IMG/VR virus record: IMGVR_UViG_3300031111_000011
Span: 1 to 64,000 of that record
Reading direction: 5' to 3' (one strand)
DNA: 64,000 bases
Source: a virus
A model generated the notes under the pieces. The model worked only from the letters and a program-made list of their open reading frames with translations, was not told the origin of the DNA and did no database searches. Of the stretch, positions 36,588-62,065 are shown in pieces. Position numbers and translations under genes: made by a program. How positions within the stretch are numbered: position 1 is the first letter of the stretch; every line of letters starts with the position of its first letter.

Positions 36588-36997
36588 TACACCCCCTTCT
36601 TGAGCGCCATGAAGTCAGCGATCTTGCGGTAACCGAAAGCAGATCCTACGGCGATGCCGAGCATCCATTGGTACCACTGTGGGCAGGTAGCCAGGGCAGC
36701 AAACCCGACTGTGACCCACCCTGCTCCGGTTGGAAAGAAACAGAGGATGGCAGGAATCGAAAGGACAATGGTAAACCATTCATCCTTCCACCCGCTCTGG
36801 TTGATGGAGGTGTTCTCCCAGGCGATGTCCCCCTGCTGTTGGGTGAGCATCTTATTAATGGTAGCTTCGGTTTTCGCCTCAGTCACCTTGACCTTGGATT
36901 CAACCTCCACCTCTTTGATACGTTGCCGATGTCGGAACCAATCTGTGACGGGGGCCATCAGACCCCCGACCAGATCACCAAGGATCTTACCGACCAC
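36587..36997 (-). CDS. membrane protein (136 aa, 2 C-terminal TM)
   Basis: ORF track; ATGA overlap. Confidence 0.5.
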   Translation of the reverse strand: MVGKILGDLVGGLMAPVTDWFRHRQRIKEVEVESKVKVTEAKTEATINKMLTQQQGDIAWENTSINQSGWKDEWFTIVLSIPAILCFFPTGAGWVTVGFAALATCPQWYQWMLGIAVGSAFGYRKIADFMALKKGV

Positions 36998-39900
36998 TTC
37001 GTGACTCCTTCATAGTTTCCTTGATGATGTCGTGACGCTCCAGGATTAACAGGTCGATCTCTTCCCGCTTCTCCTGGGCAGTCATATCCTCATCAAGTTG
37101 GATAGCATCGATTTCCTTATTGATGGCTCTCACCTGTTTCATTGAGGCATTCATCAGTGGTCGGAGTTCGATCTTATCCTGGTTGTTGTCATAGTAGTTG
37201 TCAGCTTCAAGATCATCCTTTGCACTCCAAGATCTGAACGCTGTGTCTACCTCGGCAGCGAGGTCGTAGAACCGTTCGTAGTGCTTGGTGTACCCAGGAG
37301 TGTCGTGTCGCATCATTCCACCATTGAGCAGGTAGTAGTCCTCTTTTACGAGGGCTGGATCGGTTGGGAAGGACATCAGGTGCGGCATCACAATGTGGTC
37401 CGTCAGGGTGAGAGCGAGACGACCCACTGTTGCGAATTGGCTGTTGATGAAGTGGTCAAGGCGCTGTGGTGAAATAAACCCAGTGAGTTTACCAATGCCA
37501 CGAGCGGTCTTGCTGGTGCGGTGAGTCCACTGCATGTCAGGGTCAAGACTCTGTTTGCTCCGACTTACAATAGGAGCCCCCGTGTACCCGTCCTCACCCC
37601 CTTCACCGTCAGTCTGGGCCAGGACTTCCTCCATGAGAGGAGGAAAGCCAACTGCGAAGGTTTCCCGGAGGGTCTTCCAGGCAAACTTACCGACACTACC
37701 GTACTCACCTTCCTGCCAAGCTTCTGCCATGGCAGTTGGGAGTCCACTGAAGATCGCGCCTACCTCGAAAGGCATCGGGATCTGGAAGCGTTCTCCAAAG
37801 GCGTAGACATGGTAGTATCCCCACTTCTGGTGATACGGCAGATCACGATACTTGACCTTACGGTCTTCATCGTCATCGTGTGCCGTGTTCCATGCGTGGA
37901 GTGCCAGGGTCAGAGCCGAGAGCATTGCCCCTTTGTAGAGGATCTGCTTGCGGATCATCCCCAGAGCCCGTTTATCTTTACGGGCTTCACGAGCAAGTTT
38001 GTACAGACCCTGGATTCGAGCGTTGAGGAATGGGACCGTTCTTGTGAATACAGCAACGAATCCACTCTCTCCGCTCAGTCCGAAGTCCAGGATGTCCTTC
38101 GCTTCGAAAGCAGCCTCGAAGGAACTCTTGCCTTGAGCTTTTGTATTCTGGTAGAGGGCAACTCGCGTTGCCGACTCACTGAGCTCCATGAGCTTGCCCA
38201 GTTTACCTTCGCCCTTCATTGCCTTCTTGATTGCCTTCTGAGCACCCAGTGGATTGTCCGCACGGTAGTACCCACCAGAGAACCCACCACCCTGACTCAT
38301 CATCTCGACAACGTCTGGATGATTCCGCAGAGTAGCCCACATCCCCTTAGCCGTATCCACAACAGGAATGAACCCGTCCTTCATCACACCGGTAGCCATG
38401 GTGTCCCTGGTCATGTTTCGAACATGGAACCACGGGTTAGCGGTCACACCAAAGGTGAGCCCTCGCTTGAGTCCACCCATGATCTGGAAGACGGTGTTGT
38501 TCAGCCCCTTATGGTTAAGCTCCGTGAGAGCCTGGAACACATCGTTATCCTCGACCTTATAATACCGGGCCTTACCATCCACCCGAATCGAAATCAGATC
38601 GTTGCGTTTGGCAAGATCCTTCGGGTTACCCAGTACCCTGGTCATGAATGCCGATGTCCCCTTCTTCTCGCTCACCATGCCATTGGCTTTCAGTGAGTTG
38701 TAGAGCTTCTTGCGGGAGATGTTCTTGAGACTCTGGTCGATCAGGTACGTGTAGTTCATGACGAGATTCTCGATAGGATCACCGATCATCCCTTCCTTTT
38801 CACCTTCCTTGAGAGCCTTCACCGTACCCACGAACTTGTCGAGGGCTGTCGGTGCTTGGCTACCAAAGACCCCCTCTTCCTCCAGGTCGAAGACCCGGTT
38901 CAGAGGAATGTACACGTCCTTACGCCATGCCTTTTCCCATTCAGGATTCCAGATACCCGCCTTCCGGCAGAACTCTTTTACCGATTCATTATACTCCTTC
39001 AGGTGAGCCTTGACTTTGTCGTACTCACCGGCCTTGAGTTGATTATCAGCAGCCGCTCTGAGCTTTGCGATCTCAGCGTCAGTGTCGATGCCTTTACCAA
39101 AGATCCCGTCAGCAAACTCGCTACCTTTGACCCGTTTCAGTTCATCCACGGTGTCGGCAACAAGCCGAGCTTTGACGGCTTTCATGGTCTGGGCATCCAT
39201 ACCTTCAAACACACTGAGGAGCCCCTTCGAAGCATCCGGACGAGTAATGACCCAGTGGGTTGCCTTGTTGTACATTGGCTTGCCATGATGCAGGATCGTA
39301 CCCATGATTGCTGGCATCGATTGATGGAGACGACGGGACATGTACGCCGACATCTCAGCACCAACCCCAAGCTTCTCTTCGAGGGTCTTGAGCTTCCGGA
39401 ACCGGTCAACGCCCGTCAGGATTGTCCACTCCTTGAAGGCAGTGGCTGTGTCCACGGGATGACTCACTCCATCCAGGATCTTGGCAGCAGCACCCTTGAT
39501 GGTGTCCATCTTGGTTTTCCCCTCGCTCAGAGCGAGGTTCTTGGTAGCCTCATCCAGATCACGGGCCTTAGAATACTTACCCTTGATCCCTCGATCTTCA
39601 AGATGCTTGCGGTAAAGCTTATCCAACTCACTCTGGTCGCTGTAGAGCTTCTCAGGCAGGTTGAACTTCTTATGGAGTTGACCAATAGGGTCACCACCCG
39701 CCTCTCGTTTGAGGTATTCAAGCGGAGTCAGACCATCATGTTTCCATGGATTTCCTTTCACCTTAGTAGATCGGTGTTCAGTAAGGCCGTACTCGAAGTC
39801 GTATTTAAAGTCCTCCAGCGTTTTTCCTTGGGCTTCGGCAACGACCTTCATCCAGATAGCAGCCTGAACCTCTCTCGGGGACCACTCGTGATCAGTCTCC

Positions 39901-42900
39901 TCGCTGAGTTCATGAGCAAGTTGAAACAGCTTACGACGAGAAGCAGTATGCTCATCAGCCAGGAAGTTGGAGTCCAGAGTGGCAATCTCGAAGTTATGAG
40001 GAGCCTCTTCACCGTCCTTGAGAAGCCCTGCGTCCTTCCGCTCTCTGTACTCAGTCACCTCATTCCTGCTCTTGATGGCTGCGCGTACATTGGAAGCTGA
40101 GAGCAGAACGTGGCCGAAAAAGGCCCGATGCATCCACATATCATTCGTGGTTGCCTCAGTGTCACCTGTGAGAGCCCGGATAAACTCATCGACCTTATAA
40201 TTCTTGCTGAACGTCAGGTCGCCTGACAGAATCCGATCAAGGGCTTTCTTAACATTGGATGGGTATTTGCCTCCTGGTTTGTCACGCTTACCCATAAGGT
40301 AGAGGTACGTGTCCACCGCAAACTGGGTGTTGGTAGTAGCCTTCGCGTTAGGCGAAGTGAGCCCAAGGAGAATGTTGAAGAGAGGGGCATCCTTACCGAA
40401 GACCCTCTTAACTGTCTCCTGGTGGTTACTATACCATGTGACGGCTCGTGGGTTCTCCACGAGAACCTGCTTACACCAGTCCTTGTACTCTTTGTCAGTG
40501 TGTTTAAACTCACTCCACTCTCGCATATCCTTATGGATCAGCCGGTTCTTAGCAACCTCAAGGAGGTTGTCGATGTCCTTCATAGTAAGGGACACTTTGT
40601 CATCCGAGAACCCCATCACCTTTTTCAGCCATGCGTTCATGAACTCAAGGAACTTCTGGAAAACTTGCTTGCGCTTCATCGGGTTAAGTTTTTCGGCCCG
40701 ACGAGCGATCACCTCTTCGACAATGAGTCGGCGTTTCTCGATCTCCTTCTGTTCAGGAGTGAGGTCTTTCCGACCAGCGATATTCTTAAGGTCATCAGCA
40801 TAGAGATCCTTGACCTCCGCGTAAGCCTTCTTGGATTTCCTGATAGCAACATAAGCGCTGTCAAGGAACTCCTTGAAGAGTTTACCCGCCTCGTCCTTGG
40901 TGCTGCGAGTGTCAAACAGCTTGAGAAGCCCCCGGTGACCCACTTGCTCGTGGAGCCACACTTGGGTTGCACGTTTGGTGTCAGACAGACTGTCGGCCAC
41001 AAAGTAGATCTTGTCGGCCTCTTCATCCCACACTGCTTCCACACGGACCCCATTATTGGTGTCCTCTTTGGAGAGACGGTGCTTCTCAGGAAGCTGGTCA
41101 TGAGACTCAACCAATTCAATCTTGGCACCGCGACTACCCACCAGCTTCTGGAGTGTGTGGAGCTTGTCAAAGATCTGCTTTGAGGACTCTTTCTTGAGTT
41201 TACTCCGAGCCATCTTAGCAGCCTTGCTGTAACGAGGATTCCCTTCCTCGTCGTACTTCAGAGGGGTCTTCCTGTCGTTTGTCCCTTCAGGAGCAACATT
41301 CCCCGAACTATCCTCTTCGTAGGTCACACCTTCCTTGAGATCGTGTTTGACTTTAACCTTGCCCGATCCCTCGTACTTCTTCCTACCCCACTCCCTAAGA
41401 GGTTTCTCCTCAACCTCCCAGGTTCCATCAGCCTGTTCCACTGGCTGGTGCGTAAGTGGGTCTTCAAATTTCCGGATAGCTCGTTTGGCTGCTTCCTTGT
41501 TCTTATAGACCTTGCCTACGGTCTTGCTGACCGTAGGGGCTGGTTCGGATGTGACATTCGACGGAACATTTTCAACCTGCTTAGACTTCGGAGTGAGGAT
41601 TTCCTTGGTCTTGTCACCCAGGCCGAGCTCCATGTTGGCTTTCTCAGCCAGAGCCTCAGCGTCAGCTTTACGTTGAGCATCGACCTTCCTGCTTTCCTCA
41701 GCGGCTTTCCGTTTTTCAACAGCAGCTACCTGGGAAGGATGGAGGGCTGGTTTCGCCTCAAGCTTTGCGCCTTCTTTTTGGAAGAAGGCAGCATCGCTCT
41801 TGGCCTTCTGATCCACGACCTTGGCTTGTTGACTTTGTTGTTCTGCCTCGATGCCAGAGCGCACCTCTCCCGCCATCTGGGATTTCTGGACAGATCGTTT
41901 TTGCTCACTTGCCCGTTTAGTAGTCGCTGCTTTCTCAGCGATCTCAGCACGGGCTTTCTCGTTGGCACGAGCTTCACGTTCAGCCTTCCCTCGTGTCGTA
42001 GAAGGGTTCCCAGGTTGTTTACTTGCTTCCTTACGCGCCTGTTCCTGACGAGCTTGAACCTCAAGACGATCCACTTGCTCTTCGAGACGTTGGGCAAGAC
42101 CATCTGTGAGGACACCCATCCGAGGATCTCCAGTGGATGCTTTGAGAGCACTCAGGTCGTACATGACTCCCTTGAGTTTTGGGATACTCTCCTCACCAAC
42201 CACGAGAGCCCGGTGAGCAGCACGGAGAGACTTGGCAGCAGCCTTGTGCTCCTTAACCTCACTACCTTCCAGAGCGGGGAGCATGTTGTGGACAGCACCC
42301 ATCAGCCCTTTCGGAGTAGACACAAAGTCAACGAACTGCTGGAACTTATCTCGTTCCGCAGCAGCAGCGTCCATCTGAGCTTCACGGTTCGCACGTTGAA
42401 GTTGCTCCTCCTGCATACGAGCCTCAGCAGCCATGGTCGCTTCGATCTGGCGCTGACGATCACGAGCAGTCTGTTGACGGGCTACCTCAGCCTCTGCTTG
42501 GAGTTGTTCCTTGGTTTTCGCCTCGACCTTTTCTTCAGTAGATCCTCCAACACTGAAGGCTCCAGCGTCCTCCTCGACCTTGATTCCACCTTGGTCATCA
42601 TCCTTAGCAAAAGCCGTATCCAAATCTTCAGGAACTGAAGGCGCAGTTGTCTTGTTGGTTTCCGCATCAGCATTGGTTTCACCCTCCGCATCTGCTTCGG
42701 TTTGTTTCTTTGCCTTGACATGGGCGATGACATCGAATGGAGCTTTCACAGCAACACCGGCACCTGGGAGAAGCATACCGCCCACTGCACCGATCTTCAT
42801 GCTCTCGTTCCGGGAAGCTTTGAACTCCTCAGAACCTACCACCTCTTTGAAATCGTCAATGAGTTCCCCAACAGGAGCATCAGGGTTGGCCGCATACACA

Positions 42901-43694
42901 TCAGCAGCAGCCTCAGTGTACGCCTGGATTCCTTCTTCAAGACCCTCTCCAGCAGCACCTTGCATAAGCTTGCCGATGTAGAGCTTGAGCTTGTCACCCA
43001 TTTTCAGGGATTTTCCGAAGGCTCCTGCGACACGCTTCAGTGAGTTGATTTGGAGAAGGTTCCCGGCCATTTCAGCAGGGGTTCCAAGGGCAGCGTGAAT
43101 CAGAGCAGCATTGAACCGCACGTCCTCATCCTCGATCCCCTTGTCAATGAGATCCTTGTCCTTTTCCCCCATCATCTGCATGAAGGTAGTGGCTGTTCCG
43201 ACTGGAGCACTGAGTGCAGACGCAACCATAGAGGCACCATAGCGGCTCAGGCCAACACCAGCTTCTTCGATGGTTCCGAGAATGGTCCCTTTTTTGGAAG
43301 GGTCCATTTCATCCACTTTGTCTGGAAGGGCTTCTTCTACAGAGCCAATGTCCTCAACAGCTTGTTTACGCTTTGCTGTGTGTGGGTCATCCTGCGCAGC
43401 TTCAGCGGATCGCTTACGCATCTGAGCAAGATATCCACCGGAATTTAGTTCGACAGGCTTACCATCAAGGGTCCGATCCTGGAGCACCTTTGTGCCGTGG
43501 ATTGCATCTGAAAGGCCAACCCCAAGGGATTGGCCCATTCGTTTCAGGGCACCTGAGTGTTCTTCTTCGGGTTCGGATGTATTGAGTTGCTCGATCTCAG
43601 ACTCATCCACGTCCTCGATCACAAAGGTTTGTGTTTTTGGTTTTTCAGCTTCAAACTCGTCTTGATCGATATCCTCAATAATGAACTTTGCCAC
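36987..43694 (-). CDS. giant virion/internal (ejection) protein, 2235 aa, with HExxH motif and long coiled-coil middle
   Basis: GTG start after ACGAGGA; WLHEQVGH zincin-like motif; Ala/Glu/Lys/Gln-rich central region; occupies the slot of the internal core protein or vRNAP in podovirus gene orders. Confidence 0.7.
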   Translation of the reverse strand: MAKFIIEDIDQDEFEAEKPKTQTFVIEDVDESEIEQLNTSEPEEEHSGALKRMGQSLGVGLSDAIHGTKVLQDRTLDGKPVELNSGGYLAQMRKRSAEAAQDDPHTAKRKQAVEDIGSVEEALPDKVDEMDPSKKGTILGTIEEAGVGLSRYGASMVASALSAPVGTATTFMQMMGEKDKDLIDKGIEDEDVRFNAALIHAALGTPAEMAGNLLQINSLKRVAGAFGKSLKMGDKLKLYIGKLMQGAAGEGLEEGIQAYTEAAADVYAANPDAPVGELIDDFKEVVGSEEFKASRNESMKIGAVGGMLLPGAGVAVKAPFDVIAHVKAKKQTEADAEGETNADAETNKTTAPSVPEDLDTAFAKDDDQGGIKVEEDAGAFSVGGSTEEKVEAKTKEQLQAEAEVARQQTARDRQRQIEATMAAEARMQEEQLQRANREAQMDAAAAERDKFQQFVDFVSTPKGLMGAVHNMLPALEGSEVKEHKAAAKSLRAAHRALVVGEESIPKLKGVMYDLSALKASTGDPRMGVLTDGLAQRLEEQVDRLEVQARQEQARKEASKQPGNPSTTRGKAEREARANEKARAEIAEKAATTKRASEQKRSVQKSQMAGEVRSGIEAEQQSQQAKVVDQKAKSDAAFFQKEGAKLEAKPALHPSQVAAVEKRKAAEESRKVDAQRKADAEALAEKANMELGLGDKTKEILTPKSKQVENVPSNVTSEPAPTVSKTVGKVYKNKEAAKRAIRKFEDPLTHQPVEQADGTWEVEEKPLREWGRKKYEGSGKVKVKHDLKEGVTYEEDSSGNVAPEGTNDRKTPLKYDEEGNPRYSKAAKMARSKLKKESSKQIFDKLHTLQKLVGSRGAKIELVESHDQLPEKHRLSKEDTNNGVRVEAVWDEEADKIYFVADSLSDTKRATQVWLHEQVGHRGLLKLFDTRSTKDEAGKLFKEFLDSAYVAIRKSKKAYAEVKDLYADDLKNIAGRKDLTPEQKEIEKRRLIVEEVIARRAEKLNPMKRKQVFQKFLEFMNAWLKKVMGFSDDKVSLTMKDIDNLLEVAKNRLIHKDMREWSEFKHTDKEYKDWCKQVLVENPRAVTWYSNHQETVKRVFGKDAPLFNILLGLTSPNAKATTNTQFAVDTYLYLMGKRDKPGGKYPSNVKKALDRILSGDLTFSKNYKVDEFIRALTGDTEATTNDMWMHRAFFGHVLLSASNVRAAIKSRNEVTEYRERKDAGLLKDGEEAPHNFEIATLDSNFLADEHTASRRKLFQLAHELSEETDHEWSPREVQAAIWMKVVAEAQGKTLEDFKYDFEYGLTEHRSTKVKGNPWKHDGLTPLEYLKREAGGDPIGQLHKKFNLPEKLYSDQSELDKLYRKHLEDRGIKGKYSKARDLDEATKNLALSEGKTKMDTIKGAAAKILDGVSHPVDTATAFKEWTILTGVDRFRKLKTLEEKLGVGAEMSAYMSRRLHQSMPAIMGTILHHGKPMYNKATHWVITRPDASKGLLSVFEGMDAQTMKAVKARLVADTVDELKRVKGSEFADGIFGKGIDTDAEIAKLRAAADNQLKAGEYDKVKAHLKEYNESVKEFCRKAGIWNPEWEKAWRKDVYIPLNRVFDLEEEGVFGSQAPTALDKFVGTVKALKEGEKEGMIGDPIENLVMNYTYLIDQSLKNISRKKLYNSLKANGMVSEKKGTSAFMTRVLGNPKDLAKRNDLISIRVDGKARYYKVEDNDVFQALTELNHKGLNNTVFQIMGGLKRGLTFGVTANPWFHVRNMTRDTMATGVMKDGFIPVVDTAKGMWATLRNHPDVVEMMSQGGGFSGGYYRADNPLGAQKAIKKAMKGEGKLGKLMELSESATRVALYQNTKAQGKSSFEAAFEAKDILDFGLSGESGFVAVFTRTVPFLNARIQGLYKLAREARKDKRALGMIRKQILYKGAMLSALTLALHAWNTAHDDDEDRKVKYRDLPYHQKWGYYHVYAFGERFQIPMPFEVGAIFSGLPTAMAEAWQEGEYGSVGKFAWKTLRETFAVGFPPLMEEVLAQTDGEGGEDGYTGAPIVSRSKQSLDPDMQWTHRTSKTARGIGKLTGFISPQRLDHFINSQFATVGRLALTLTDHIVMPHLMSFPTDPALVKEDYYLLNGGMMRHDTPGYTKHYERFYDLAAEVDTAFRSWSAKDDLEADNYYDNNQDKIELRPLMNASMKQVRAINKEIDAIQLDEDMTAQEKREEIDLLILERHDIIKETMKESRSGR

Positions 43695-43705
43695 TGTAGT
43701 CCTCG

Positions 43706-44800
43706 TTACTGTTCATTTGCGGTTTTATATACCTGCCACTGGCCGCGCACCTTCTTGTAAAATTGATCACCAATTTTCTTCATCGCCCCGTCCGGAGAAT
43801 CCGGAAAAGCTTTGGCGAGTGCACCTTCAGGGGTGTCTGCGTCAACCTCAGCAGGTTTCGGTTTCCCTTTACCACCCACTCCGTAGCCGCCACCTCCCTT
43901 GAGATCCTCCCTGGTGAAGCCAGTGAGTTCCAGGGCATCATCGATGATTTGCTCTCTACGGTTTCCGCGAACATCTTTAGCTCCGGAAACGAGACTCTTC
44001 AGGATTGCCATCCGATCACTCCTGTCTTTCTTAGAGAGTGTCCGGATGATGGCTTCCTTACGTTTGCTTCCGTCAGGAAGATTGAGAGCCTCTTCGAGGA
44101 GAGCGGCGTCTTTCGCAGCAGCACCCTTGTTCGGGTCAGTCTTACGAGCCTTAGCGTTGATACCTGCAACACCAAGAGAGGTTTTCGAACTGAGCTTCGC
44201 ACGGTCCATCGCGGCAGTGTTGTTCGCATCAGCAATATTTTCACGGGAGGTACGATCTGCGGCTCTCTCTGTGGAATCATGTTTCAGCTTGTCGTCCTGG
44301 AGTTTCTTGGCGTTCTTGTGCTTCATGTTCAGCACTTCCTGCTGGAAAAACAGCTTGCCGTCAGACACATAGTTATCCATCTGTTTCTGCATCTGTTCCA
44401 CTGTTTGGAACTGCATCACTGGTTTTGCCTCTGGATCGTAGACTGCATTTCCGTTCTCGTCGTATTTCCCTTTATAGAAGCTTATGATCCCATTTTCACC
44501 GACTTCACCAGGGACAACGGTCTGACCATCTTCGAGGTGAGTGTTGTAAACCTTTGCAGCAGCGTTGGCACTGCGATCACCAAGCATCCAATCCTTACGA
44601 GCAGCGAGACTTTTCTGAGCAGCACGTTGAGCAGCGATTTTCATCTCATGCTCATCCTTCTTCATCTGATGCGTTTCCTCTTGCATCTCCAGAAGTTTGT
44701 CGTCTTTCTTCTTCTTCTGTGCGTCTTTGTAGCCTTGGATTCCGATCTTAAGACCGCTATCAAAACCTTCAGCCATTGAATCCCAAATTCCTGGCATCAT
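43706..44800 (-). CDS. internal virion protein (364 aa)
   Basis: Lys/Asp-rich, Gly-rich C-terminus; position. Confidence 0.6.
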   Translation of the reverse strand: MMPGIWDSMAEGFDSGLKIGIQGYKDAQKKKKDDKLLEMQEETHQMKKDEHEMKIAAQRAAQKSLAARKDWMLGDRSANAAAKVYNTHLEDGQTVVPGEVGENGIISFYKGKYDENGNAVYDPEAKPVMQFQTVEQMQKQMDNYVSDGKLFFQQEVLNMKHKNAKKLQDDKLKHDSTERAADRTSRENIADANNTAAMDRAKLSSKTSLGVAGINAKARKTDPNKGAAAKDAALLEEALNLPDGSKRKEAIIRTLSKKDRSDRMAILKSLVSGAKDVRGNRREQIIDDALELTGFTREDLKGGGGYGVGGKGKPKPAEVDADTPEGALAKAFPDSPDGAMKKIGDQFYKKVRGQWQVYKTANEQ

Positions 44801-44807
44801 TTACTCC

Positions 44808-45668
44808 TTATCCCCCAAAGAGGCTTGCGCCATAAGCTGAACCAGCGCCACCGGCCAGGGCACCGAGCCCTGTTCCTGCGACCTTTCCAAGGAGACTTCC
44901 AATGCCTCCTCCACCAGATGTGCTCTGTGTGGAACTCATGACACGAGATGCCAGAGTGCCGTAAGACCCGGCTGCTCCCTGCATACCGGCCATGGCACGA
45001 TTGGCTGGATCTGCGGTGGCGAGTTGCTGAGTTCCGTTACCTTGGGTGGATTGGATTCCAGGCAGTCCTTGGGCTGACCGGTTGGCGTTCATAGCAAGTC
45101 CCAGACGGCTGAAGCTTTCAGTTTCAGCGGCCTTACCTGCTGCATACCGAGCACCACCGATGGCTTTGGCTCTTTCCAGACCAGAGGTCTTGAGCATAGA
45201 TGCCATCTTGCTACCATCGACGTTGATGCCCATTCTGGCCGCATCCCGACGTGCTTGCGCTTCAGAGGCACCCAGTGCCTGGGCTACATCCGCTTGAGCC
45301 TCGTTCTGCCAATCAGCTTTATTCACACCCCTGAGTGCCTCATCATAGAACTTAGACGAGATCTCCTTCCCACGGGAAAGTTCTGCCGCTTGGTTTTCAC
45401 GCATCAGGTCTTTGATTGGCTGATTCAGTTCCAGGTCACGGACCTGTTCCTGCATCGTCAGTTTCGACGCTTCAGTAATGTACGGTAGGAGTTCTTTGTT
45501 TGCTTCAGCAGCCTGGATTTCGTAATCCTGGAAATACTGCTTATACATTTCCCATTGATCTTCGGCCATGTCTTGCTGACGTTCAGCGACAGCGGCCATC
45601 TTCCGGGAAGAAACAGCATCGTAGGTATTCGTTGTGGTTTGGCTACTACCTTTTCCACCACCACCCAT
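44808..45668 (-). CDS. internal virion protein (286 aa), Gly/Ala-rich
   Basis: ORF track; position. Confidence 0.6.
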   Translation of the reverse strand: MGGGGKGSSQTTTNTYDAVSSRKMAAVAERQQDMAEDQWEMYKQYFQDYEIQAAEANKELLPYITEASKLTMQEQVRDLELNQPIKDLMRENQAAELSRGKEISSKFYDEALRGVNKADWQNEAQADVAQALGASEAQARRDAARMGINVDGSKMASMLKTSGLERAKAIGGARYAAGKAAETESFSRLGLAMNANRSAQGLPGIQSTQGNGTQQLATADPANRAMAGMQGAAGSYGTLASRVMSSTQSTSGGGGIGSLLGKVAGTGLGALAGGAGSAYGASLFGG

Positions 45669-45672
45669 TGAT

Positions 45673-46203
45673 CTACTCCTTATAGAAATCCCTGGTGACG
45701 TAACTTACGACCCCAGGAACAGATGTTGTTTGGTCATCGATCCAACAGGCATTCGGAACCTCTCCAACCTTCTTCATCCCAGTCAGGAAGATCCACTTGG
45801 CTGCTTTGATCGTGGTAGGTGTAAGGCCGGTGATCACATCGAACAGGAAGTATCCATCCCTATCCTTTAGGTGGATCAGTTCCTTGACAACCCACTTACC
45901 TACTTCCACACTCTTCTCTCCCCACACCTCTTTGAATAGACAGAAGTGAATCTGTGCGCTTCGTTCTCGCATATTGTTCAGCCAAACAATTCCTACTGGA
46001 ATACCGGCATCGGTAATGACCCAGAGTGCGTTGTCCGGATTCTTGAACATGGCGAGGAAGGTTGGGAAGGTAATCTTGCTCTCATAGAAAACGGTGTCCA
46101 GTGTTCCGTCTTCTTCCATCTTCTGAAAGATGCGGAGAAGCTGACTGTCTTTCAGTGTGGGGATTCCATCGTTTACGATGTACGGATAAAGAGAGAGTTC
46201 CAA
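45673..46203 (-). CDS. virion-associated protein (176 aa)
   Basis: ORF track. Confidence 0.5.
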   Translation of the reverse strand: MELSLYPYIVNDGIPTLKDSQLLRIFQKMEEDGTLDTVFYESKITFPTFLAMFKNPDNALWVITDAGIPVGIVWLNNMRERSAQIHFCLFKEVWGEKSVEVGKWVVKELIHLKDRDGYFLFDVITGLTPTTIKAAKWIFLTGMKKVGEVPNACWIDDQTTSVPGVVSYVTRDFYKE

Positions 46204-46204
46204 T

Positions 46205-46447: not shown

Positions 46448-46448
46448 A

Positions 46449-52996: not shown

Positions 52997-53932
52997 CTAC
53001 TTGACAGCTTCTTCCCAAGCAGCGTCAAAGTCTTCTTTGGCTGGACCGTCCTTTGGGGGTCCACCAGATGACCCTGGCACTGCCAACAGGTCTTGGGCTC
53101 TCCTGCTGGCCGATGGAGTTGGTTTTGGTTTTGGTTTGGATTGAGGAGACGGGGTGTTGACTCTCTTGTAAGAGTCGAACATCTCGATAACCTCTGAAGC
53201 GGACCCTGATTGGGCAACTCTCTGGAGCCCTTCCCGGAGGAAGGCAGGTTGGGCGTTGATCCAAGCTTCGAGTTTTCCTGACTCTACAATTTCGGAGAAG
53301 TCAGGGTGTTTCTCGGCAATGGCATCAAAGTGTGCCTTTGTGTCGTCTGCCTGTGATCTCTGCTCAATAGACTCGATCTTCGGGGTGATCTTCTGGAGAC
53401 GTTCATCGACCAGTGCTTCCGCTTCCTTACGTGCCAGAGCACGGAACGGACTTTCCAGGTCAGGATATTCCTTGAAGAATGCTTCAAGGTCTTCCTCACT
53501 GGCTCCATCAGGGAGGGTTGGTGTTTCACCCTTAGCCTTCAGTGCTTCAGCGAGTTTCGCTTCCGCTTCTTCAGCCCGTTTGTTGGCTGCGCGGATGCGT
53601 CCTTCCCAAGAACTGGTGCGTTGTTTCTCCTTCTCATACAGATCCTTGTAGTCTGTCTCATCAGATGACTCTGGGTTCTCCTCCTCCCCGTCACTTGCCT
53701 GACCGTCGTCAGGGGTGCGGTTGAAAAGTTCAGTGTCTTCCTCTTGAGGGACTTCAGTGTCCGTACTTTCCTGCTCAGACGTTTCCTTCTCAGAGGGATT
53801 GGCCGGTTCCTCTTCAAATTCTACGTCATCAGCAGGAGTCTCCTCCTTGATCGCTTCATCGAAAAAATCTTCAAATGTGGGGTCTTTCTTTTTTTCGTCC
53901 TTCTCCAAAGTGTGCTCCTCTACGGGGTCCAA
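52997..53932 (-). CDS. scaffolding protein (acidic, coiled-coil, 311 aa)
   Basis: Glu/Asp-rich N-terminus; lies between portal and capsid. Confidence 0.6.
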   Translation of the reverse strand: MDPVEEHTLEKDEKKKDPTFEDFFDEAIKEETPADDVEFEEEPANPSEKETSEQESTDTEVPQEEDTELFNRTPDDGQASDGEEENPESSDETDYKDLYEKEKQRTSSWEGRIRAANKRAEEAEAKLAEALKAKGETPTLPDGASEEDLEAFFKEYPDLESPFRALARKEAEALVDERLQKITPKIESIEQRSQADDTKAHFDAIAEKHPDFSEIVESGKLEAWINAQPAFLREGLQRVAQSGSASEVIEMFDSYKRVNTPSPQSKPKPKPTPSASRRAQDLLAVPGSSGGPPKDGPAKEDFDAAWEEAVK

Positions 53933-54233: not shown

Positions 54234-56291
54234 TCATCCAACAGTCACCTCTGGGATTGCGCCCTGTTCAAGTTGCTCAGGTGGTAGCTGCTCCATGTGG
54301 GGAAGCCCAGGCCGCTCTGTTGACCCTTCGTCGTTAACATGGCCGCTTGATTTAGCCTTCATGAGTTCCAGTTCGCGCATGAACTGTTTTTCCTCCTCAG
54401 CAGCGGCAGCAGCCCTTTGCTGCTCATCAGCAACCTGATCCGGATTCTTGATGAGGTTCATCTCATCCAAGTCAAGTGCCTTGGCGATTTCTCGGAGGAT
54501 CGCATCACGATTCACGAACTGCATATCGATCTCGTTGTTCGTGAGGGCAAGGAACTGGTTAAGCTGTTCGGCTCGAACTTCTTTAGCAATCAGAGAGGCA
54601 GATCCCTCGGCATTAACGCTGAAGTCGCCCTTGATTTCCGGTTTCGGATTGAACTCCATGTTCCAGAAATACATGCTCTTGATGAAGGGCTTTGTGATCC
54701 CATCATCGAAGTTCTTGACCTGATCCTTAATGGTGATGTTGGCTGATCCCATCAGGAGGCTTAGGCCAGTAGCTGTCTTGCCAGCACCTCCGAGGTGCGC
54801 CTGATCTCCGTACATATAACGGGGAACAGTGGTAACCTCGTCAGCAGTCTTCAGGAAGAATTCCACCATGGTGAGAAATTCAGAGGTATGTGACGGAATC
54901 TGGTTGACATTGATTGCCTTGGCTGAGGCTTCCATGCCCTGGCCGTTACGTCTGAAAACTCTGAATGGGTAGATGTCTTGCGGATCTTCAGCCGAGTCCA
55001 GAAGGTCGATGTTGGCCTCGATAATAGGACCGGCAGAGATGGCAGCATTATCGAGCAGAGCACGAACACTGGCGTTGAACAGGCTCTGCGGATCACGCAT
55101 GATCCGGGGGATGCCTTCACCGAAAATGCTCGTCTCGTCCTTCTCGTAGTAGTAGGTGAAATATGGGAAAGTGACCCCTTCCAGGGGACTGATCACCGCC
55201 TTGATCACTACGTCACCGAGAAGCCACACGTTGGCAGCAACCTCCATACCGAGCCTTTCCTCATCAATCTCAACGCCGTAATCCTTGAGATCCTGAGTAC
55301 TTACGAACCCCCAAAACTCAAGGAGTTCATATCGGCCTTTGGCCCCCATCTGAGTAGCCGCCTTGCTCTCACCATCCTGGCTGAGGGTCCGGAGGTCACT
55401 CTCATGGTTCTTGTACTCGACATCGCCGTCGTGGTGTGCTCGAAGGTATGCTCGAATAGCGTCCCCTTTGAAGTCCTTCCGGCCAGCAAGCTGGTAAACC
55501 TGATGCCGGTTCTTGACGTGTCGCTGGAACACAAATCGGGCATCGTCAACCCGGTTCACAGACATGTCAGGGTAAAAGTCCCAAATAGGGACAAACTCAC
55601 AGTAAGGTGAGTAGGACGTCATGGACATTGTGGCCCAGGTACCACTCTCATGTGGAACCCATCGTTTCGCCACGTTCTGTTTAATCAGTGGGCCTTTGAG
55701 AATACCCGTTCCGTAAACATTCCCGGAATGGATGACATTCCGAATGATCTCTCGATACTTGATCTCAGCGAGTTGATCTTCGATCTCCTTTTGCATCGAA
55801 TCAGATCTACGTTTCGCTTCATCAAAAAGAACTTGCTTGATCTGGTGAGGAGATGGCTCCTGGCCGTTGATTTCGGTGAGTTGGGCGTAAATCTGTTCGA
55901 CCAAATCTGGGCTCAACTCCGGAAGCGGAGTCGGGGTAATCCCCCAGTTACGGTCCCCGTTCGCTGGAAAGAGTATGTCACACACCCTGGCACTGACTGT
56001 TTTGACCTTTGTGCGTGTGATGGAAAGATTCGCCTTCGACCGTTTTGGGTGCATTTTTGAGAGAATACCAGGGTCATACTGCCCCTTGTATTGGCGAAGA
56101 TCCTTGATCCACTCCTGTTCGATTTGACGACGATCTGATTCCACTTGATCGAAGAGCCCACGGATATACAGGCCGAGAGGGGACATATAGTCCGCATACA
56201 TCGCTTTCTTTTCAGTGAGTTCTGGACTTGCCTCTTCCTCTTTCACAGCAGCGACGTAGGTCTTGTCAAACATCTGCTTTTCATGTTCCAT
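54234..56291 (-). CDS. portal protein candidate (685 aa)
   Basis: Size and position upstream of scaffold and capsid; acidic C-terminal tail. Confidence 0.6.
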   Translation of the reverse strand: MEHEKQMFDKTYVAAVKEEEASPELTEKKAMYADYMSPLGLYIRGLFDQVESDRRQIEQEWIKDLRQYKGQYDPGILSKMHPKRSKANLSITRTKVKTVSARVCDILFPANGDRNWGITPTPLPELSPDLVEQIYAQLTEINGQEPSPHQIKQVLFDEAKRRSDSMQKEIEDQLAEIKYREIIRNVIHSGNVYGTGILKGPLIKQNVAKRWVPHESGTWATMSMTSYSPYCEFVPIWDFYPDMSVNRVDDARFVFQRHVKNRHQVYQLAGRKDFKGDAIRAYLRAHHDGDVEYKNHESDLRTLSQDGESKAATQMGAKGRYELLEFWGFVSTQDLKDYGVEIDEERLGMEVAANVWLLGDVVIKAVISPLEGVTFPYFTYYYEKDETSIFGEGIPRIMRDPQSLFNASVRALLDNAAISAGPIIEANIDLLDSAEDPQDIYPFRVFRRNGQGMEASAKAINVNQIPSHTSEFLTMVEFFLKTADEVTTVPRYMYGDQAHLGGAGKTATGLSLLMGSANITIKDQVKNFDDGITKPFIKSMYFWNMEFNPKPEIKGDFSVNAEGSASLIAKEVRAEQLNQFLALTNNEIDMQFVNRDAILREIAKALDLDEMNLIKNPDQVADEQQRAAAAAEEEKQFMRELELMKAKSSGHVNDEGSTERPGLPHMEQLPPEQLEQGAIPEVTVG

Positions 56292-57096: not shown

Positions 57097-57108
57097 TGTT
57101 TCTCCTTA

Positions 57109-60045
57109 TTAATTTGGAAATGGTGTCACGCACCCGAAGGTGAACGGGATACTCTTCCCTGGCCCGATGGCCGTGGGAAGAATCAGTCCGGTGTTCTGGA
57201 AGGTGACAGGTTGTGATTCGAAACCGGCAGCAAGAGCCTCAGCTACCCGTTCGAGTTGAAGGACATTTGGTGGATTCACCAGGAACTGCTTCGAGATCGT
57301 GGAAACAATCCCTACCGCATTCGGATAAATGTTCGAAAAGATTTTGCTATTCGAGATCAACTGGAGCCAGAGCGGGATGTGGTAAGCAAAGTCCCTCGTG
57401 ATCTGGTTCAGTAGATGAAGAGCGAAATCAGAATCCACCTCTGTGAGGATGTGAGAGGCGATCTGGTTTGCGTCTACCCGGAGGATATGGGACGCACCAG
57501 GGATGCTTTGTGACTCCAGAATATGAGCCCCTGAGAGCCCTGTGGTAGCCCTCAGCAGATGAGCCGCCGAATCCATTGCTCCACTGATGAGAATATGGCT
57601 ATCAAACGACTTGGACCCGTCCACCAGGAGGTGTACCGATCCGCTCATCTGAGCAGCAGCCAAAATATGGGCAGCAGCCGAAAGGAGTGAGTTGTACCGG
57701 TCAAAAACCTGTGCGGCAAAGTCTTGTGAAACTTGATTCAGGATATGCGAAGCACCATCAATTGATCCACCCACCAGAAGGTGGTTGGCAATGTCCCTGG
57801 ACACCCCATTCAGAACGTGAGCAGCACCGTCAAAACTCTCACCAGCCATAATATGTGCTGCAAGGTCCAGATAGCGGTATTGGGTAGAAAGCTCAAAATT
57901 GGCAGTGTAGCTTCGATTCTGGTAAACACTCGTTGCAGTGAGTGGGTTGCTCGTTGTAGTAGCGTACCCTGTCCAGTTGACAAAGGCATAGCCACTGTTC
58001 GGGACAGCCGTGACAGCAGTGGAGTTGCCACCGTAAGAAACGGTTTGACTGGTGGTCCCGCTTAGTGTCCCACCTGTTCCAGCAGAAAAGGTCACATTAT
58101 AACTGGGAAACGTAGCAGTGACACTAAGGTACAGTTGGTTCGCAGTGCCATCTGGACCGTAGAAAATCGAGACAGGTTTAGGGGTTGAGGTCGGGGGCGA
58201 ATTAACCGCATCGTGGTAATCCCTGAGACAAAGCTTGGTGTCCCCGGTCTTGTTAATGTGGGATCGTCCAGCAGCGTTAAAAGTGATCGTTTTCCAAACA
58301 TTCGCCGTGGTACCGGATGCTACTGTCCCAAAAATAGTTGACCCGAAACTATTGTAGTCACTGGTTGTAAGTGACGAACTCTGTGTACCTGCGTAGCAAT
58401 ATACAGTAGAGCCTGTGGTTACTGCCGAGTCTCCTTGATTCGTGTGTGTCTTTGCCTTGAAAGAAACCGCAGTAATCGTAGCAGCACTTAAGGCCGATGT
58501 ATCGTGACGTGTGAAAGCTCGGACAATTTGGTACTTAGTACCAGCGTACGTTGACTTACAAGAGATATTGGTTGCGCTATCGACAACATACCCACCAGTA
58601 CTCCTGGCGACTCCCCAACTTGAATCCCCCAACATAGTATTACTAATTGTGCCAGCACCAGTGAGTTCCCCGTAGTAGGTGTAAGCATCAATGTATGAAG
58701 TGTTACGCAGAACTCCTGAAGTAATAGTCTCAGAAGTTGGGTATTTCACATACTCAAGAGTCCCATCGGGATTGTCACAAAGAGTATGTAGAACTGTTGC
58801 TGTAAGGGGAGTAAACTCCGCGTCAATAAGAATTGGTTGGCGAATGGTAAACTTAACGCTTCCATCCATGTCAGTGATAATGTACCTGCCGAATTCATCC
58901 GGTTGGTAATACTCCCCTGTAACTGACAGGGAATTGGCCTTCTTAACCCGCGTAATAATATGATCCTGAACAACTTGAACAAATTGCTCATAGGTTGTAT
59001 CCAGGTAACCAACCTTGCTAATATCCCACCATCGGTTTGGGTCTTTGTATACCTTCGGGATTTCACCAGTGAGGTCTTTGGTGTCAATCGCAGCACCGAT
59101 CCAACCGGGGCCACCTACGTACCCACCGATCAACTTACCGTCGCAAATGTAACCATACCCCTCAGTGGTAACGGGCTTACCGGCCAGAATCGATAGCGCC
59201 TCACAAAAAATTCGATTGATACCTCGCTTCATTGGAGCGTCTTTGATAAGAATATGGATCTTACCATCATTCATGTAGGAGGTACACGCACCAACTTGAG
59301 TCTGGTCTACAAAGTAGCCCTCTGGAAGTGTTTCGCAGATATCATCTTCAGTCCCTTTTGTTACGGACTTCCCAACCTGTTGACCAAAGCTAATTGAAAA
59401 GCGAGACTCTGCCATACGAGCAAAGACAACATTGTACCACTCAGCCGTGGTAACAATCCCGTGGGCAGACACGTCTGGATCGATAAAAGCCTCCCGAAGC
59501 ACCTGTGTGCCGGATACTTTTGGATTCTGGACTTTCAAACCCTTAAGGTGAATCTTGTATGACACCTTAAAGTCTTCAATAGGCCGGTCAACCTTAACCA
59601 TTTGGCGGGTGGAGACACGGCTGTTTTGTACAACACAATTACCGAGGTCAATAGTACATGGGTTTACTTGTGTGTTCTTTGTGAGATCTACCGGAACGTC
59701 TTGACCGTCAAACTCAATGCCCTCAATCGAAAACTCAAGTTGTTCGGTCCCAAGCTTCTGGTTTTCATCAGGTCGAAGTCCAAGGTACTTCGTTGGAGTG
59801 CCATCCGTTCGAATACCAGCACTAACAATGTTCTTATCACGTAGAAGAATCCTACCGACAGTGCTCTCAGTTTGGGCAACTTCCTCTAAAATGATTGGTC
59901 TGAGAGTCCCGTTTTCATCCTGGTAGTACTCTGGAGAACTCACGTCAAAGCACCGGTACTCCGCAAAGCCATCGTCATACGGAAGTACATCAGTAAATCT
60001 ATTTACAGGAGCATGTGAAGGAAGAAGAGGGGTTCTCTCGGTCAT
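57109..60045 (-). CDS. large virion appendage protein (978 aa) with C-terminal tandem xxHxL repeats
   Basis: About 20 ~13-aa repeats (AAHVLNGVSRD.. / ASHILNQVSQD.. / AAHLLRATTGL..); lies between terminase and portal, as the sheath/appendage gene does in N4. Confidence 0.6.
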   Translation of the reverse strand: MTERTPLLPSHAPVNRFTDVLPYDDGFAEYRCFDVSSPEYYQDENGTLRPIILEEVAQTESTVGRILLRDKNIVSAGIRTDGTPTKYLGLRPDENQKLGTEQLEFSIEGIEFDGQDVPVDLTKNTQVNPCTIDLGNCVVQNSRVSTRQMVKVDRPIEDFKVSYKIHLKGLKVQNPKVSGTQVLREAFIDPDVSAHGIVTTAEWYNVVFARMAESRFSISFGQQVGKSVTKGTEDDICETLPEGYFVDQTQVGACTSYMNDGKIHILIKDAPMKRGINRIFCEALSILAGKPVTTEGYGYICDGKLIGGYVGGPGWIGAAIDTKDLTGEIPKVYKDPNRWWDISKVGYLDTTYEQFVQVVQDHIITRVKKANSLSVTGEYYQPDEFGRYIITDMDGSVKFTIRQPILIDAEFTPLTATVLHTLCDNPDGTLEYVKYPTSETITSGVLRNTSYIDAYTYYGELTGAGTISNTMLGDSSWGVARSTGGYVVDSATNISCKSTYAGTKYQIVRAFTRHDTSALSAATITAVSFKAKTHTNQGDSAVTTGSTVYCYAGTQSSSLTTSDYNSFGSTIFGTVASGTTANVWKTITFNAAGRSHINKTGDTKLCLRDYHDAVNSPPTSTPKPVSIFYGPDGTANQLYLSVTATFPSYNVTFSAGTGGTLSGTTSQTVSYGGNSTAVTAVPNSGYAFVNWTGYATTTSNPLTATSVYQNRSYTANFELSTQYRYLDLAAHIMAGESFDGAAHVLNGVSRDIANHLLVGGSIDGASHILNQVSQDFAAQVFDRYNSLLSAAAHILAAAQMSGSVHLLVDGSKSFDSHILISGAMDSAAHLLRATTGLSGAHILESQSIPGASHILRVDANQIASHILTEVDSDFALHLLNQITRDFAYHIPLWLQLISNSKIFSNIYPNAVGIVSTISKQFLVNPPNVLQLERVAEALAAGFESQPVTFQNTGLILPTAIGPGKSIPFTFGCVTPFPN

Positions 60046-60047
60046 GG

Positions 60048-61646
60048 TTAGTATCCTGCTCCGCTATCAGCGGGGGTGTTGTATCTGCTGTGACTGGACG
60101 GTCGGGCTTTGCGCTTCATTGTCCGTCCCTCACTCAATTCGAGACAAGCATACTGAAGGGCATCGTGAACGTGGGAATAGATGTTCTTCTCTGGCTTTTC
60201 CTTGTACTTCTCACCGAGACGTACACTCTGGACCACCTTTGCAAATTTGTACTCGCTGATGAATCCCTTACGAAGTGTGTTGGCAGTGAGTTGAGAAAGC
60301 TGGAATCCACTCTGCTTACGAAGAAAGAAGTTCACCGCTTCACGACGAGCCAGTTCGTTGTTTGTCTTGGCGAGTCGAGTGGGTAGTCCCGCCTGGACCA
60401 GAATGTCCATGGCAGACCGCTTGTCATTCTGCGACCTGTTCCGGGCAGCAGGGTCAATGACAAGCTCAAAGTTGAACCGCATGTACTTGTTCTTGATCAG
60501 GGGCCAAAGGTGATCTTCTGCAAACTCCTGAATAGAGGTGTTCTCTGTGACAATCTCGTCAAGGATTATCAGAGATCCTGTCGGAGTGAGTTGGCAGAAA
60601 GCCGCAGCAGGAGTGAGCCCAACGTCCACACCGATGGTGATTGGCAGACCTTCAAGGGGTTTGATTGGGCGGTCGGTCGCGTGGTACTTGTCTTGGTAAG
60701 CCTTGTAGACAGGTCTTCCCTGTCGCAGAGCGCCATAGTTATTCAGGATGAAAATATTCACCCAGTCGGGGTCAGCACCCGCTACCTGATCCACGTAATA
60801 GTCTGGATCAAGATGTTTGAACCAGACGTCAATCAAATCCCCAGTGAGTGTTCCGGATGGGTTCCTTCGGAGTGGAGTCCCGTCCTGGGTGTAGGCTGCT
60901 GCCTGGGCTGGAGGACAAAGCTCAAACAAACCACGGTCTACCGCTTCCCAGTGTCCGAGGTTGTCAGCTTCAGGATTGATCCGATAAAAGTTGTTCTCGG
61001 CATCAGCTACGATCCCATCAGCCTCACTGCACATGAGCAGTGCGGGTGGTTGGTGATAGAAGCTGTGGCGATTGGGCTGCACCTCTTCGGCAAGTCTGTA
61101 CAGCCAGTGATCCACGTCTACAGAGTTGTAGTCGCAGATAATGAAGGGATCGATGGCACCCCCGTCCATAGATGCAGGAAACCGATTGACACGGGATTTG
61201 AGCATCTGGTGGACTCCAGGAGGGATTTCAGCCGCCTCGTTGATGTGGCTTGCGGTCAACTCCAGGGACTGTAGCTTATTGACATCTTCCTCCCGGTCGA
61301 GAGCGATGAAGTTCAACTCCATGTTGACCCTGGTTCCGTCCGGAAGAGGCAACGCAACAGTCCCACGGATGGGCGCACCCATCACGATTTTGATCATGTC
61401 CTTGAACCACTGTTTCCAGGACTTCACGACTGTCGTTGCAAGAGCCGGGTAAGACGCACGAATGATCGCATATCGACTATTCCGAACCCCATCCGAGTCG
61501 GGTACCTGCTTAAGAGCATTCATGAACAGATGAAGGATACATCCACTGGACTTCCCAGATCCCACCGGGCCTCTAACGAAGAGGAACCTGTTGGGATCAC
61601 GATGGACTTTCATGAACGTATTGTTTGCGACATAGTTGATTTGCAT
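60048..61646 (-). CDS. terL: terminase large subunit
   Basis: Walker A VRGPVGSGKSS at the N-terminus; C-terminal nuclease region; 532 aa. Confidence 0.85.
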   Translation of the reverse strand: MQINYVANNTFMKVHRDPNRFLFVRGPVGSGKSSGCILHLFMNALKQVPDSDGVRNSRYAIIRASYPALATTVVKSWKQWFKDMIKIVMGAPIRGTVALPLPDGTRVNMELNFIALDREEDVNKLQSLELTASHINEAAEIPPGVHQMLKSRVNRFPASMDGGAIDPFIICDYNSVDVDHWLYRLAEEVQPNRHSFYHQPPALLMCSEADGIVADAENNFYRINPEADNLGHWEAVDRGLFELCPPAQAAAYTQDGTPLRRNPSGTLTGDLIDVWFKHLDPDYYVDQVAGADPDWVNIFILNNYGALRQGRPVYKAYQDKYHATDRPIKPLEGLPITIGVDVGLTPAAAFCQLTPTGSLIILDEIVTENTSIQEFAEDHLWPLIKNKYMRFNFELVIDPAARNRSQNDKRSAMDILVQAGLPTRLAKTNNELARREAVNFFLRKQSGFQLSQLTANTLRKGFISEYKFAKVVQSVRLGEKYKEKPEKNIYSHVHDALQYACLELSEGRTMKRKARPSSHSRYNTPADSGAGY

Positions 61647-61648
61647 AG

Positions 61649-62065
61649 TTACTTAGTTCCGGAGAGTGGAATAACCTTCCCTGCGATAGGAGGAGCAGCC
61701 TTTGGTTGCTCTTGGGTAGGATTGCCAAGCATGAGATTGAGAACAGTTGTGTCCCCAGAACCCAGATTGACTTCGGTGGATTTGAGACGAGGAAAGCAGT
61801 ACCCCATCAGATCTTTCTCGATTGAGCGTCTCCACTTGATCTGATCTTCCAAACCTTCGAGTTCACCTGCCATCATGTAAGTGAAAAGAACCTGATCAAT
61901 CAGATCGAACTGATGGTCTTCCTTCAGTTGCTTCAGGAGAACTTTGGCCCGTTTCTGCTTATTATAGATCTGAGGCTTACGAGGTTTGCGTTTCGCTGCT
62001 TTCTTCTTCGGGGCTTTTTTCTTCGGAGGGGATTGACCTTCAACGGTCCACTCTTGGTCAGACAT
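61649..62065 (-). CDS. terminase small subunit candidate (Lys-rich DNA-binding N-terminus)
   Basis: Directly upstream of terL; start moved to ATG 62065 (AAAGGAAC RBS) because the track start overlaps tRNA-Gln. Confidence 0.5.
   Translation of the reverse strand: MSDQEWTVEGQSPPKKKAPKKKAAKRKPRKPQIYNKQKRAKVLLKQLKEDHQFDLIDQVLFTYMMAGELEGLEDQIKWRRSIEKDLMGYCFPRLKSTEVNLGSGDTTVLNLMLGNPTQEQPKAAPPIAGKVIPLSGTK

Follow-up and report, generated by a model that had tools for sequence, protein, structure and literature searches.

The DNA analysed here is a 64,000-nucleotide stretch of viral DNA (positions 1 to 64,000 of IMG/VR record IMGVR_UViG_3300031111_000011), referred to below as the window. All positions are those of the whole window, and genes were called from a list of open reading frames (ORFs) together with library searches of Pfam, PHROGs and NCBIfam. 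A chain of minus-strand ORFs, which constitutes the virion-gene or late arm of the phage, runs without a break from 62110 down to 36987; the GC and AT skews are strand-consistent across this arm and support the chain. The last large gene of the arm (36987–43694, minus strand) starts with GTG and encodes a protein of 2235 residues, hereafter called the giant, which was identified from the ORF list, its translation and a Pfam match to LPD38. An identical protein (P0001) is on record in a public metagenome assembly. From its N-terminus the giant is laid out as a conserved N-terminal module, a charged linker, a zincin-like domain, a DUF7178 domain and a C-terminal module containing LPD38, all of them encoded on the minus strand.

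The conserved C-terminal module of ~800 residues (36990–39407), which defines the family, was detected with both Pfam and PHROGs. Pfam LPD38 (PF18857) matches residues 1948–2105 (37380–37853), scoring 83.9 bits where the cut-off is 27 (E = 2e-23), and PHROGs 9854 and 18222 span residues 1538–2229. NCBIfam matched neither the giant nor the neighbouring proteins. When 5.8 billion proteins were searched with the whole protein, 37 homologues were recovered, each 1950–3900 residues long and all carrying LPD38, which align to the last 36% of the giant only. The domains upstream of the shared module vary among these homologues and include ART-PolyVal, ddrB-ParB, methyltransferases, Zeta toxin, helicase and pyrophosphatase. 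A constant C-terminal module joined to enzymatic cargo that is reshuffled from protein to protein is the hallmark of the polyvalent proteins. Iyer, Burroughs, Anand, de Souza and Aravind defined this class, and the LPD names originate with them (Iyer et al., 2017; PMC5512222). The giant has at least two effector domains in a varying architecture (zincin, DUF7178 and LPD38) and is encoded among the late, virion genes of a phage equipped with portal and terminase. We read it as an LPD38-type polyvalent protein and as the final large protein encoded by the virion operon, and put the probability of this reading at roughly 0.7. It adds to a known class and is not a new kind of system. The preliminary description of this DNA had considered a new kind of ejection or effector protein; the ejection or effector option stands, and the novelty does not, the LPD38 polyvalent class having been described in 2017.

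The N-terminal module (residues ~30–390; 42525–43607) is rich in Gly and Ala and contains GEGLEEGIQAYTE. In phmmer and jackhmmer searches 17 other giants proved to have it at their N-terminus, with E-values down to 1e-146, and some of these giants end in another C-terminal module. The module has no Pfam or PHROG match, and residues 1–400 find nothing in Pfam at E ≤ 10. It is followed by the linker (residues ~395–740; 41475–42512), which is rich in Ala, Glu, Lys, Gln and Arg; in a composition scan these five residues make up at least 55% of the sequence at residues 367–467 and 518–708. The linker is probably a coiled coil or disordered, and a profile search of the PDB gave only low-complexity matches to IF2 for it. 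An Ala/Glu/Lys/Gln-rich core of ~500 residues had been noted at first; by the composition scan it measures ~340.

The central region was searched exhaustively with HMMER using residues 740–1440, and 182 relatives were recovered, most of them giants. About 25 metagenomic giants share the entire central region with 30–55% identity. Many more have the HExxxH domain alone in common, among them ParB-methylase-helicase giants of DarB-like type, and others share DUF7178 alone, including stand-alone proteins of 170–300 residues. The N-terminal 1430 residues have no match in the sequenced phages of the INPHARED set. The N-terminal module and the ~800-residue LPD38 module are conserved across other giants, and the middle is exchangeable.

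The zincin-like metallopeptidase domain (residues ~838–1060; 40515–41183) is marked by the sequence HEQVGH (40935–40952), in which H915 and H920 are predicted zinc ligands and E916 the predicted catalytic base. This segment had been read as HExxH within WLHEQVGH; it is H915-E-Q-V-G-H920, that is, HExxxH in its HExxGH variant, and a pattern search finds no HE..H anywhere in the protein. A predicted third zinc ligand is provided by E993-E994 (40713–40718), placed on a downstream helix by the structural model. Across an alignment of 25 relatives H915, H920 and E994 never vary, and conservation is 90% or higher at E916, G919 and E993. The model shows the canonical zincin core fold: it comprises helix 9–26, strands 29–33, 58–61 and 66–70, the motif helix 77–98 and helix 151–169 (fragment numbering), with the third-ligand pair E993-E994 on the last of these, the helix following the motif. 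The domain is a zincin variant with a one-residue insertion in the motif. No peptidase model in Pfam matches the HExxxH region when it is searched as separate segments (E ≤ 10). The giant of Pseudomonas phage Rollin contains the same domain with an ordinary HEMGH motif (family profile E = 9e-11). In a close metagenomic relative of 1238 residues (P0045), which begins at the zincin domain, the motif reads HNQVGH with the catalytic Glu replaced; this protein may be an inactive or truncated version. The nearest zincins are SprT/Spartan, Wss1, IrrE/ImmA, the minigluzincins and the MPTase-PolyVal domains. By motif only, HExxGH ... EExxARRAE presumably resembles the M49 dipeptidyl-peptidase III (HExxGH ... 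EExR(K)AE(D)). HEXXXH metallopeptidases among polyvalent proteins were explicitly described by Iyer et al. (PMC5512222).

DUF7178 with its extension (residues ~1080–1385; 39540–40457) is predicted to adopt an HhH-GPD-like glycosylase fold. Residues 1080–1215 taken as a separate segment clear the Pfam gathering score for DUF7178, and the conserved unit reaches to about residue 1385. The list of fold relatives contains the 8-oxoguanine glycosylase Tm1821 (11.1, with 173 residues aligned), QNG1 (9.1 and 8.2), Pa-AGOG (8.3), MagIII (8.2) and Endonuclease III (8.1 and 7.9), followed at lower positions by NTHL1, MutY, AlkA, Mag1, ROS1 and OGG1. QNG1 (DUF2419), a queuosine-salvage hydrolase related to the HhH-GPD glycosylases, counts as a near system. 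The top-conserved residues in ~115 DUF7178 members are W1087, Y1088, S1114, N1122, K1167, D1185, Q1277 and W1281, K1167 and D1185 being 97–98% conserved. In an alignment of 33 sequences, stand-alone proteins among them, no variation occurs at S1114, N1122, K1167 or D1185.

K1167 and D1185 (40140–40196) are 18 residues apart within the pattern G-x-K-V-x-x-F-x-x-A-L-x-G-D-x-x-A-V-x-V-D-x-W-M-x-R. In the model K1167 starts one helix and D1185 caps the next, with G1177-D1178 in the loop between them. This spacing equals that of K120 and D138 in E. coli endonuclease III (Nth), where both residues are catalytic. An unguided hhalign comparison placed K1167 on K120, D1185 on D138 and R1190 on R143 of Nth, in a weak alignment (E = 0.0037, probability 9%). 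The hits listed for the Nth profile (the best 120 of 8000) were all orthologues of at least 86% identity, so this test was under-powered. Alignments of the DUF7178 profile with E. coli MutY and AlkA were short and insignificant, the N-terminal 'WY' of MutY falling on W1087-Y1088 at E = 0.32, and Foldseek returned no PDB match below E = 1 for the 611-residue model. Compared with HhH-GPD enzymes such as endonuclease III/Nth, Ogg2/Tm1821, AGOG, MagIII and MutY, DUF7178 is without the iron-sulphur cluster motif, has a longer predicted hairpin than the classical HhH, and possesses invariant residues of its own (W1087-Y1088, S1114, N1122, Q1277 and W1281). That DUF7178 is a true HhH-GPD-type enzyme is a tentative assignment, with the odds somewhat against it.

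Stand-alone DUF7178 genes encoding 184–203 residues were found on two metagenomic phage contigs, L012 (7001–7612) and L014 (1845–2399). In both the gene lies near the start of a rightward cluster of small genes, upstream of DNA-metabolism genes (PolA, RecT), and in L012 it precedes a pentapeptide-repeat protein, a dGTP_diPhyd_N protein and PolA. L012 also has an SPFH/Band_7 gene close by, as does this window. From their layout the two clusters are read as early operons. The presence of stand-alone DUF7178 genes in such leading, early-type clusters is consistent with a role as soon as infection begins, the domain being made early from its own gene or, as would be the case here, brought in ready-made. 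A literature search returned no paper mentioning DUF7178, and a glycosylase is not mentioned among the polyvalent-protein domains in the 2017 survey (PMC5512222). The further proposal, that DUF7178 represents an unrecognised branch of HhH-GPD glycosylases or apurinic/apyrimidinic lyases which acts on DNA or a nucleotide at infection onset, whether injected or early-expressed, is possible and on present evidence rather unlikely.

Experimental data on relatives bear on where the giant is found. The giant shares with the named LPD38 relatives (PTXU04 gp25, phi24B gp47, Page gp20 and phiARM81mr p69) a size between 1.7 and 3.9 thousand residues. The proteins of PTXU04, Page and phiARM81mr match the C-terminal ~800-residue LPD38 module at 25–29% identity (E = 1e-67 to 5e-30; for gp25, 25% and E = 5e-49), and the genes for PTXU04 gp25, Page_20 and phiARM81mr p69 each come last among the large genes of their virion modules, as here. 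In Bacillus phage Page the holins directly follow the LPD38 giant, in the same way as two membrane proteins follow the giant here, and in PTXU04 a comparable series of small genes precedes that for gp25. The cargo of the LPD38 relatives consists of methyltransferase, ParB, ART, LPD1/LPD5 or MuF-C domains; the giant has none of these and carries the HExxGH zincin and DUF7178. phi24B gp47 (2811 residues), which is linked to the giant through LPD38 as reported in the preprint and not through sequence comparison, is abundant in virions by mass spectrometry; it was not seen in the cryo-electron microscopy map and was proposed to be an encapsidated ejection protein (bioRxiv 10.64898/2026.04.10.717836). 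PTXU04 gp25 is needed for efficient infection, as determined by CRISPRi-ART (bioRxiv 10.1101/2023.09.18.558157). P1 DarB/DdrB and T4 Alt are capsid-packaged, injected enzymes that are active before phage gene expression (PMC5512222). The same logic is proposed for the giant, in which the domains differ.

The closest capsid relatives, Rollin (positions 15452–22006 of record L001) and DES1 (32798–39268 of record L002), also encode giants of ~2150–2180 residues in the late arm downstream of the capsid gene. BLASTP found no significant similarity between either protein and the giant, and the zincin profile alone links the giant to that of Rollin. The Rollin protein is without LPD38 and DUF7178 and is annotated 'oligopeptide ABC transporter ... 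OppA', an apparent mis-annotation.

Judging from its relatives, the giant would be carried in the capsid, would leave it by way of the tail along with the DNA, and would be necessary for infection. The pattern of conservation suggests that the N- and C-terminal modules may form a constant chassis, serving encapsidation and/or acting as an ejection conduit, and that the middle may be a cargo of two domains, the zincin and DUF7178. In the zincin, H915, H920 and E994 would bind zinc with E916 as the catalytic base, and once delivered, the peptidase would cut either the giant or a target in the host. DUF7178 would act on DNA or a nucleotide at the start of infection, in anti-defence or in host takeover.

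Several points weigh against this scheme. The presence of the giant in virions is suggested by homologues of 25–30% identity and by gene position. The N- and C-terminal modules are without known fold or function, and the chassis is proposed from a pattern of conservation. The HNQVGH motif of P0045 implies that the peptidase may be inactive in some members. For the glycosylase part, the Nth alignment is weak, and none of 33 DUF7178 members matches Pfam HhH-GPD (PF00730) at E ≤ 5.

A rival reading takes the giant for an essentially structural ejection protein, forming a conduit across the cell envelope, in which the enzyme-like domains are vestigial or serve as scaffold. Such a role was proposed by the authors of the phi24B study; across the wider family the N- and C-terminal modules alone are conserved, and PTXU04 gp25 is needed for efficient infection with LPD38 as its sole confident domain annotation. 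The giants of ~2150 residues in Rollin and DES1 occupy the same slot with otherwise unrelated sequence. On the other side, H915, E916, H920, E994, S1114, N1122, K1167 and D1185 are invariant or nearly so in distant members and also in stand-alone proteins of 170–260 residues, and conservation of these putative catalytic residues indicates selection for chemistry and not for shape alone. In addition, no hydrophobic membrane-spanning segment was found in the giant, nor in the three proteins encoded upstream of it. A purely structural conduit is accordingly judged improbable.

The zincin might alternatively be a cell-wall peptidase that opens the peptidoglycan for ejection, a virion-associated lysin with a role like that of T7 gp16. 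This was proposed for the metallopeptidase of phi24B gp47, podophages must cross the murein layer, and the search of the late-arm genes turned up no other recognisable lysin. We rate this assignment as quite improbable.

The reliance on relatives and gene position for placing the giant in virions also admits a non-virion late protein, for instance a factor acting in the cytoplasm in anti-defence or superinfection exclusion, whose gene happens to end the operon. The gene does adjoin lysis-type genes and the integrase at the arm boundary, a frequent site of accessory genes. Against such a protein stand the abundance in virions of phi24B gp47, which bears LPD38 and is linked to the giant through that reported domain, and the position after the fibre and internal-protein genes, which is kept in four unrelated podophage lineages. 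A counter-defence enzyme synthesised late would moreover gain the phage little if it were not brought into the next cell. This explanation is considered very improbable.

The polyvalent reading replaces a comparison with coliphage N4, whose late arm the gene order had been said to mirror, with the giant in the slot of the virion RNA polymerase (vRNAP), gp50. The coarse order does parallel that of N4, whose late arm ends in the 3500-residue gp50, and both arms close with a giant protein; the homology that synteny would imply was not confirmed. The shared order is generic for podophages. All 18 late-arm proteins were compared with all N4 late proteins by BLASTP and phmmer, and the sole significant pair is the adaptor with gp67 (BLASTP E = 2.5e-4, phmmer E = 1e-6). 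The portal (E = 0.07) and capsid (E = 1) gave marginal full-length alignments. The gene for gp67 (41901–42611 of record L006, annotated '30 kD virion structural protein') adjoins the terminase in N4, whereas the adaptor gene of this phage comes after the capsid gene. Homology to N4 along the whole arm was rejected, adaptor and gp67 being the one match.

The tblastn relatives of the capsid and portal are Pseudomonas phage Rollin, Pseudoalteromonas phage Y3, Xanthomonas phage DES1, HMO-2011-type roseophages and pelagiphages, and further phiM6, CHOED and Bacillus Page-like phages; no Schitoviridae were among the matches. By sequence, the structural proteins are of SU10/HMO-2011/Rollin type and not N4-like.

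The giant itself is 1265 residues shorter than gp50, in agreement with the ~1300 first estimated, and gives nothing against it by BLASTP or phmmer (E > 2). Hidden Markov model profiles of the zincin, DUF7178 and the C-terminal module matched none of the N4 late proteins. Against the PDB, single-sequence and profile searches with the giant returned only low-complexity IF2 matches and no polymerase, and a T7-like single-subunit RNA polymerase (RNAP) core (~1100 residues, as in PDB 2PO4) was not found in it. The 830 residues outside the model correspond to the 360-residue Gly/Ala-rich module and the charged linker, which are too small and composition-biased to hold such a core. No gene for an RNAP of any type was found in the window, no RNAP Pfam match was obtained in 30 plus-arm ORFs, and genes resembling the heterodimeric RNAPII of N4 were not found. 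The plus arm codes for a DnaB-like helicase, PolA, ribonucleotide reductase, dUTPase, endonuclease I, ligase, RtcB, NAMPT and others. Within the limits of computation we consider the vRNAP reading refuted, and the giant is not an RNA polymerase. Without an RNA polymerase of its own, the phage would depend on that of the host.

N4 gp50 is packaged in the head and injected. Iyer et al. (2017; PMC5512222) reported a zincin metallopeptidase in it and counted it among the polyvalent proteins. Membership of the N4 vRNAP in the polyvalent class makes 'vRNAP slot' fair as a functional analogy. The differences are that the giant is without an RNAP domain, shares no detectable sequence or profile similarity with gp50 and is the shorter of the two, and that its phage has a portal and capsid that are not N4-like, with an adaptor only weakly similar to gp67 and RNAPII genes not found.

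An element consisting of a T-run and the inverted repeat TTCTCA-(A/T)ATC-TGAGAA(G) occurs at six intergenic sites (852–876, 8891–8925, 12875–12909, 14434–14468, 18166–18200 and 36101–36125), and is probably the hairpin motif that had been tied to a virion polymerase. The copies at 8891, 12875, 14434 and 18166 are just upstream of plus-strand genes, and that at 36101 lies between the integrase gene and a 108-residue ORF. Because the T-run is 5' of the hairpin, the element is not an intrinsic terminator. It resembles an operator or promoter, perhaps for the PAS and LuxR/GerE regulator encoded by the phage (7249–8028). A divergent or truncated N4-type vRNAP that reads such hairpin motifs in the early arm, which the end-of-arm position, the polyvalent classification of gp50 with its metallopeptidase and the six motif copies might favour, is practically ruled out by the lack of gp50 similarity in BLASTP, phmmer and three family profiles, the lack of a PDB sequence match, the unsuitable remainder (the 360-residue module and the ~340-residue linker), the RNAPII-like genes not found, the grouping of portal and capsid with HMO-2011/Rollin-type phages to the exclusion of Schitoviridae, and a palindromic motif that fits an operator for the LuxR-type regulator at least equally well.

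The remainder of the late arm, all on the minus strand, was as first described in its order: the ORF list and library searches confirmed terL, the 978-residue protein, small genes, portal, capsid, fibre and giant. The exception is the ORF called small terminase (61649–62110), for which the libraries give no support; it overlaps a tRNA-Gln gene (62077–62151), and its true start must be further downstream. The large terminase terL (532 residues; 60048–61646) matches phrog_2 and is followed by the 978-residue protein with one InlB B-repeat (57109–60045), two small ORFs and the portal (685 residues; 54234–56291; SU10_portal). Next come a 311-residue ORF in the scaffold position (52997–53932), the major capsid protein (353 residues; 51910–52971), the adaptor (239 residues; 50682–51401; SU10_adaptor), a phrog_511 protein of 563 residues (48334–50025) and the tail fibre (639 residues; 46449–48368). 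Between the fibre and the giant lie four ORFs of 80, 176, 286 and 364 residues without library matches (43706–46447). Three of them (364, 286 and 176 residues; 43706–46203) are candidate internal or ejection proteins; none has a match in Pfam, PHROGs or NCBIfam, and both termini of the 286-residue protein are Gly-rich.

Two small membrane proteins of 136 and 108 residues are encoded 3' of the giant (36261–36997, minus strand), with one hydrophobic segment each (residues 73–103 and 61–86, respectively) and a phrog_2524 match for the former. They are probably encoded by holin or lysis genes with which the late operon ends. A tyrosine integrase (34648–36009, minus strand; phrog_1, E = 6e-31; Phage_int_SAM_1 and Phage_integrase domains) is located where the two arms join, closing the late arm, and suggests a temperate lifestyle. 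At the other end, directly upstream of the late arm, are 12 tRNA genes (62077–63735, minus strand) for Gln, Asn, Lys, Ile, Val, Arg (two), Thr, Gly (two), Ala and Asp.

The plus strand contains a cluster of metabolism genes of counter-defence type (26432–30821, with further genes at 10550–11713 and 25859–26383). It includes an RtcB RNA ligase (E = 7e-105) with an RlaP-like nucleotidyltransferase, and NAMPT with a cytidylyltransferase-like (NMNAT-like) protein, possibly a pair for NAD+ reconstitution. Also present is a protein with a dATP/dGTP diphosphohydrolase N-domain (MazZ-like), preceded by a 390-residue ORF without matches.

Having a giant in the position of the N4 vRNAP is not enough for a phage to be N4-like, and an attractive but mistaken reading of this arm is removed. 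The LPD38 polyvalent class to which we assign the giant is large in metagenomes and almost unstudied experimentally, with one relative found in virions and one necessary for infection. DUF7178 is widespread: over 100 giants contain it, and so do small stand-alone phage proteins, of which two are encoded in early-type clusters. As a glycosylase-like cargo, predicted from the model, it offers a fresh and testable lead. If that prediction is correct, DUF7178 could excise a host-specific or defence-installed base, cripple the host DNA or destroy a nucleotide signal, and the adjacent SprT/Wss1-like HExxGH zincin might free DUF7178 or resolve the covalent Lys–DNA intermediates of lyases. Phages of this kind would then inject a base-excision-type enzyme together with their genome, as a new early weapon or for the processing of genome ends.

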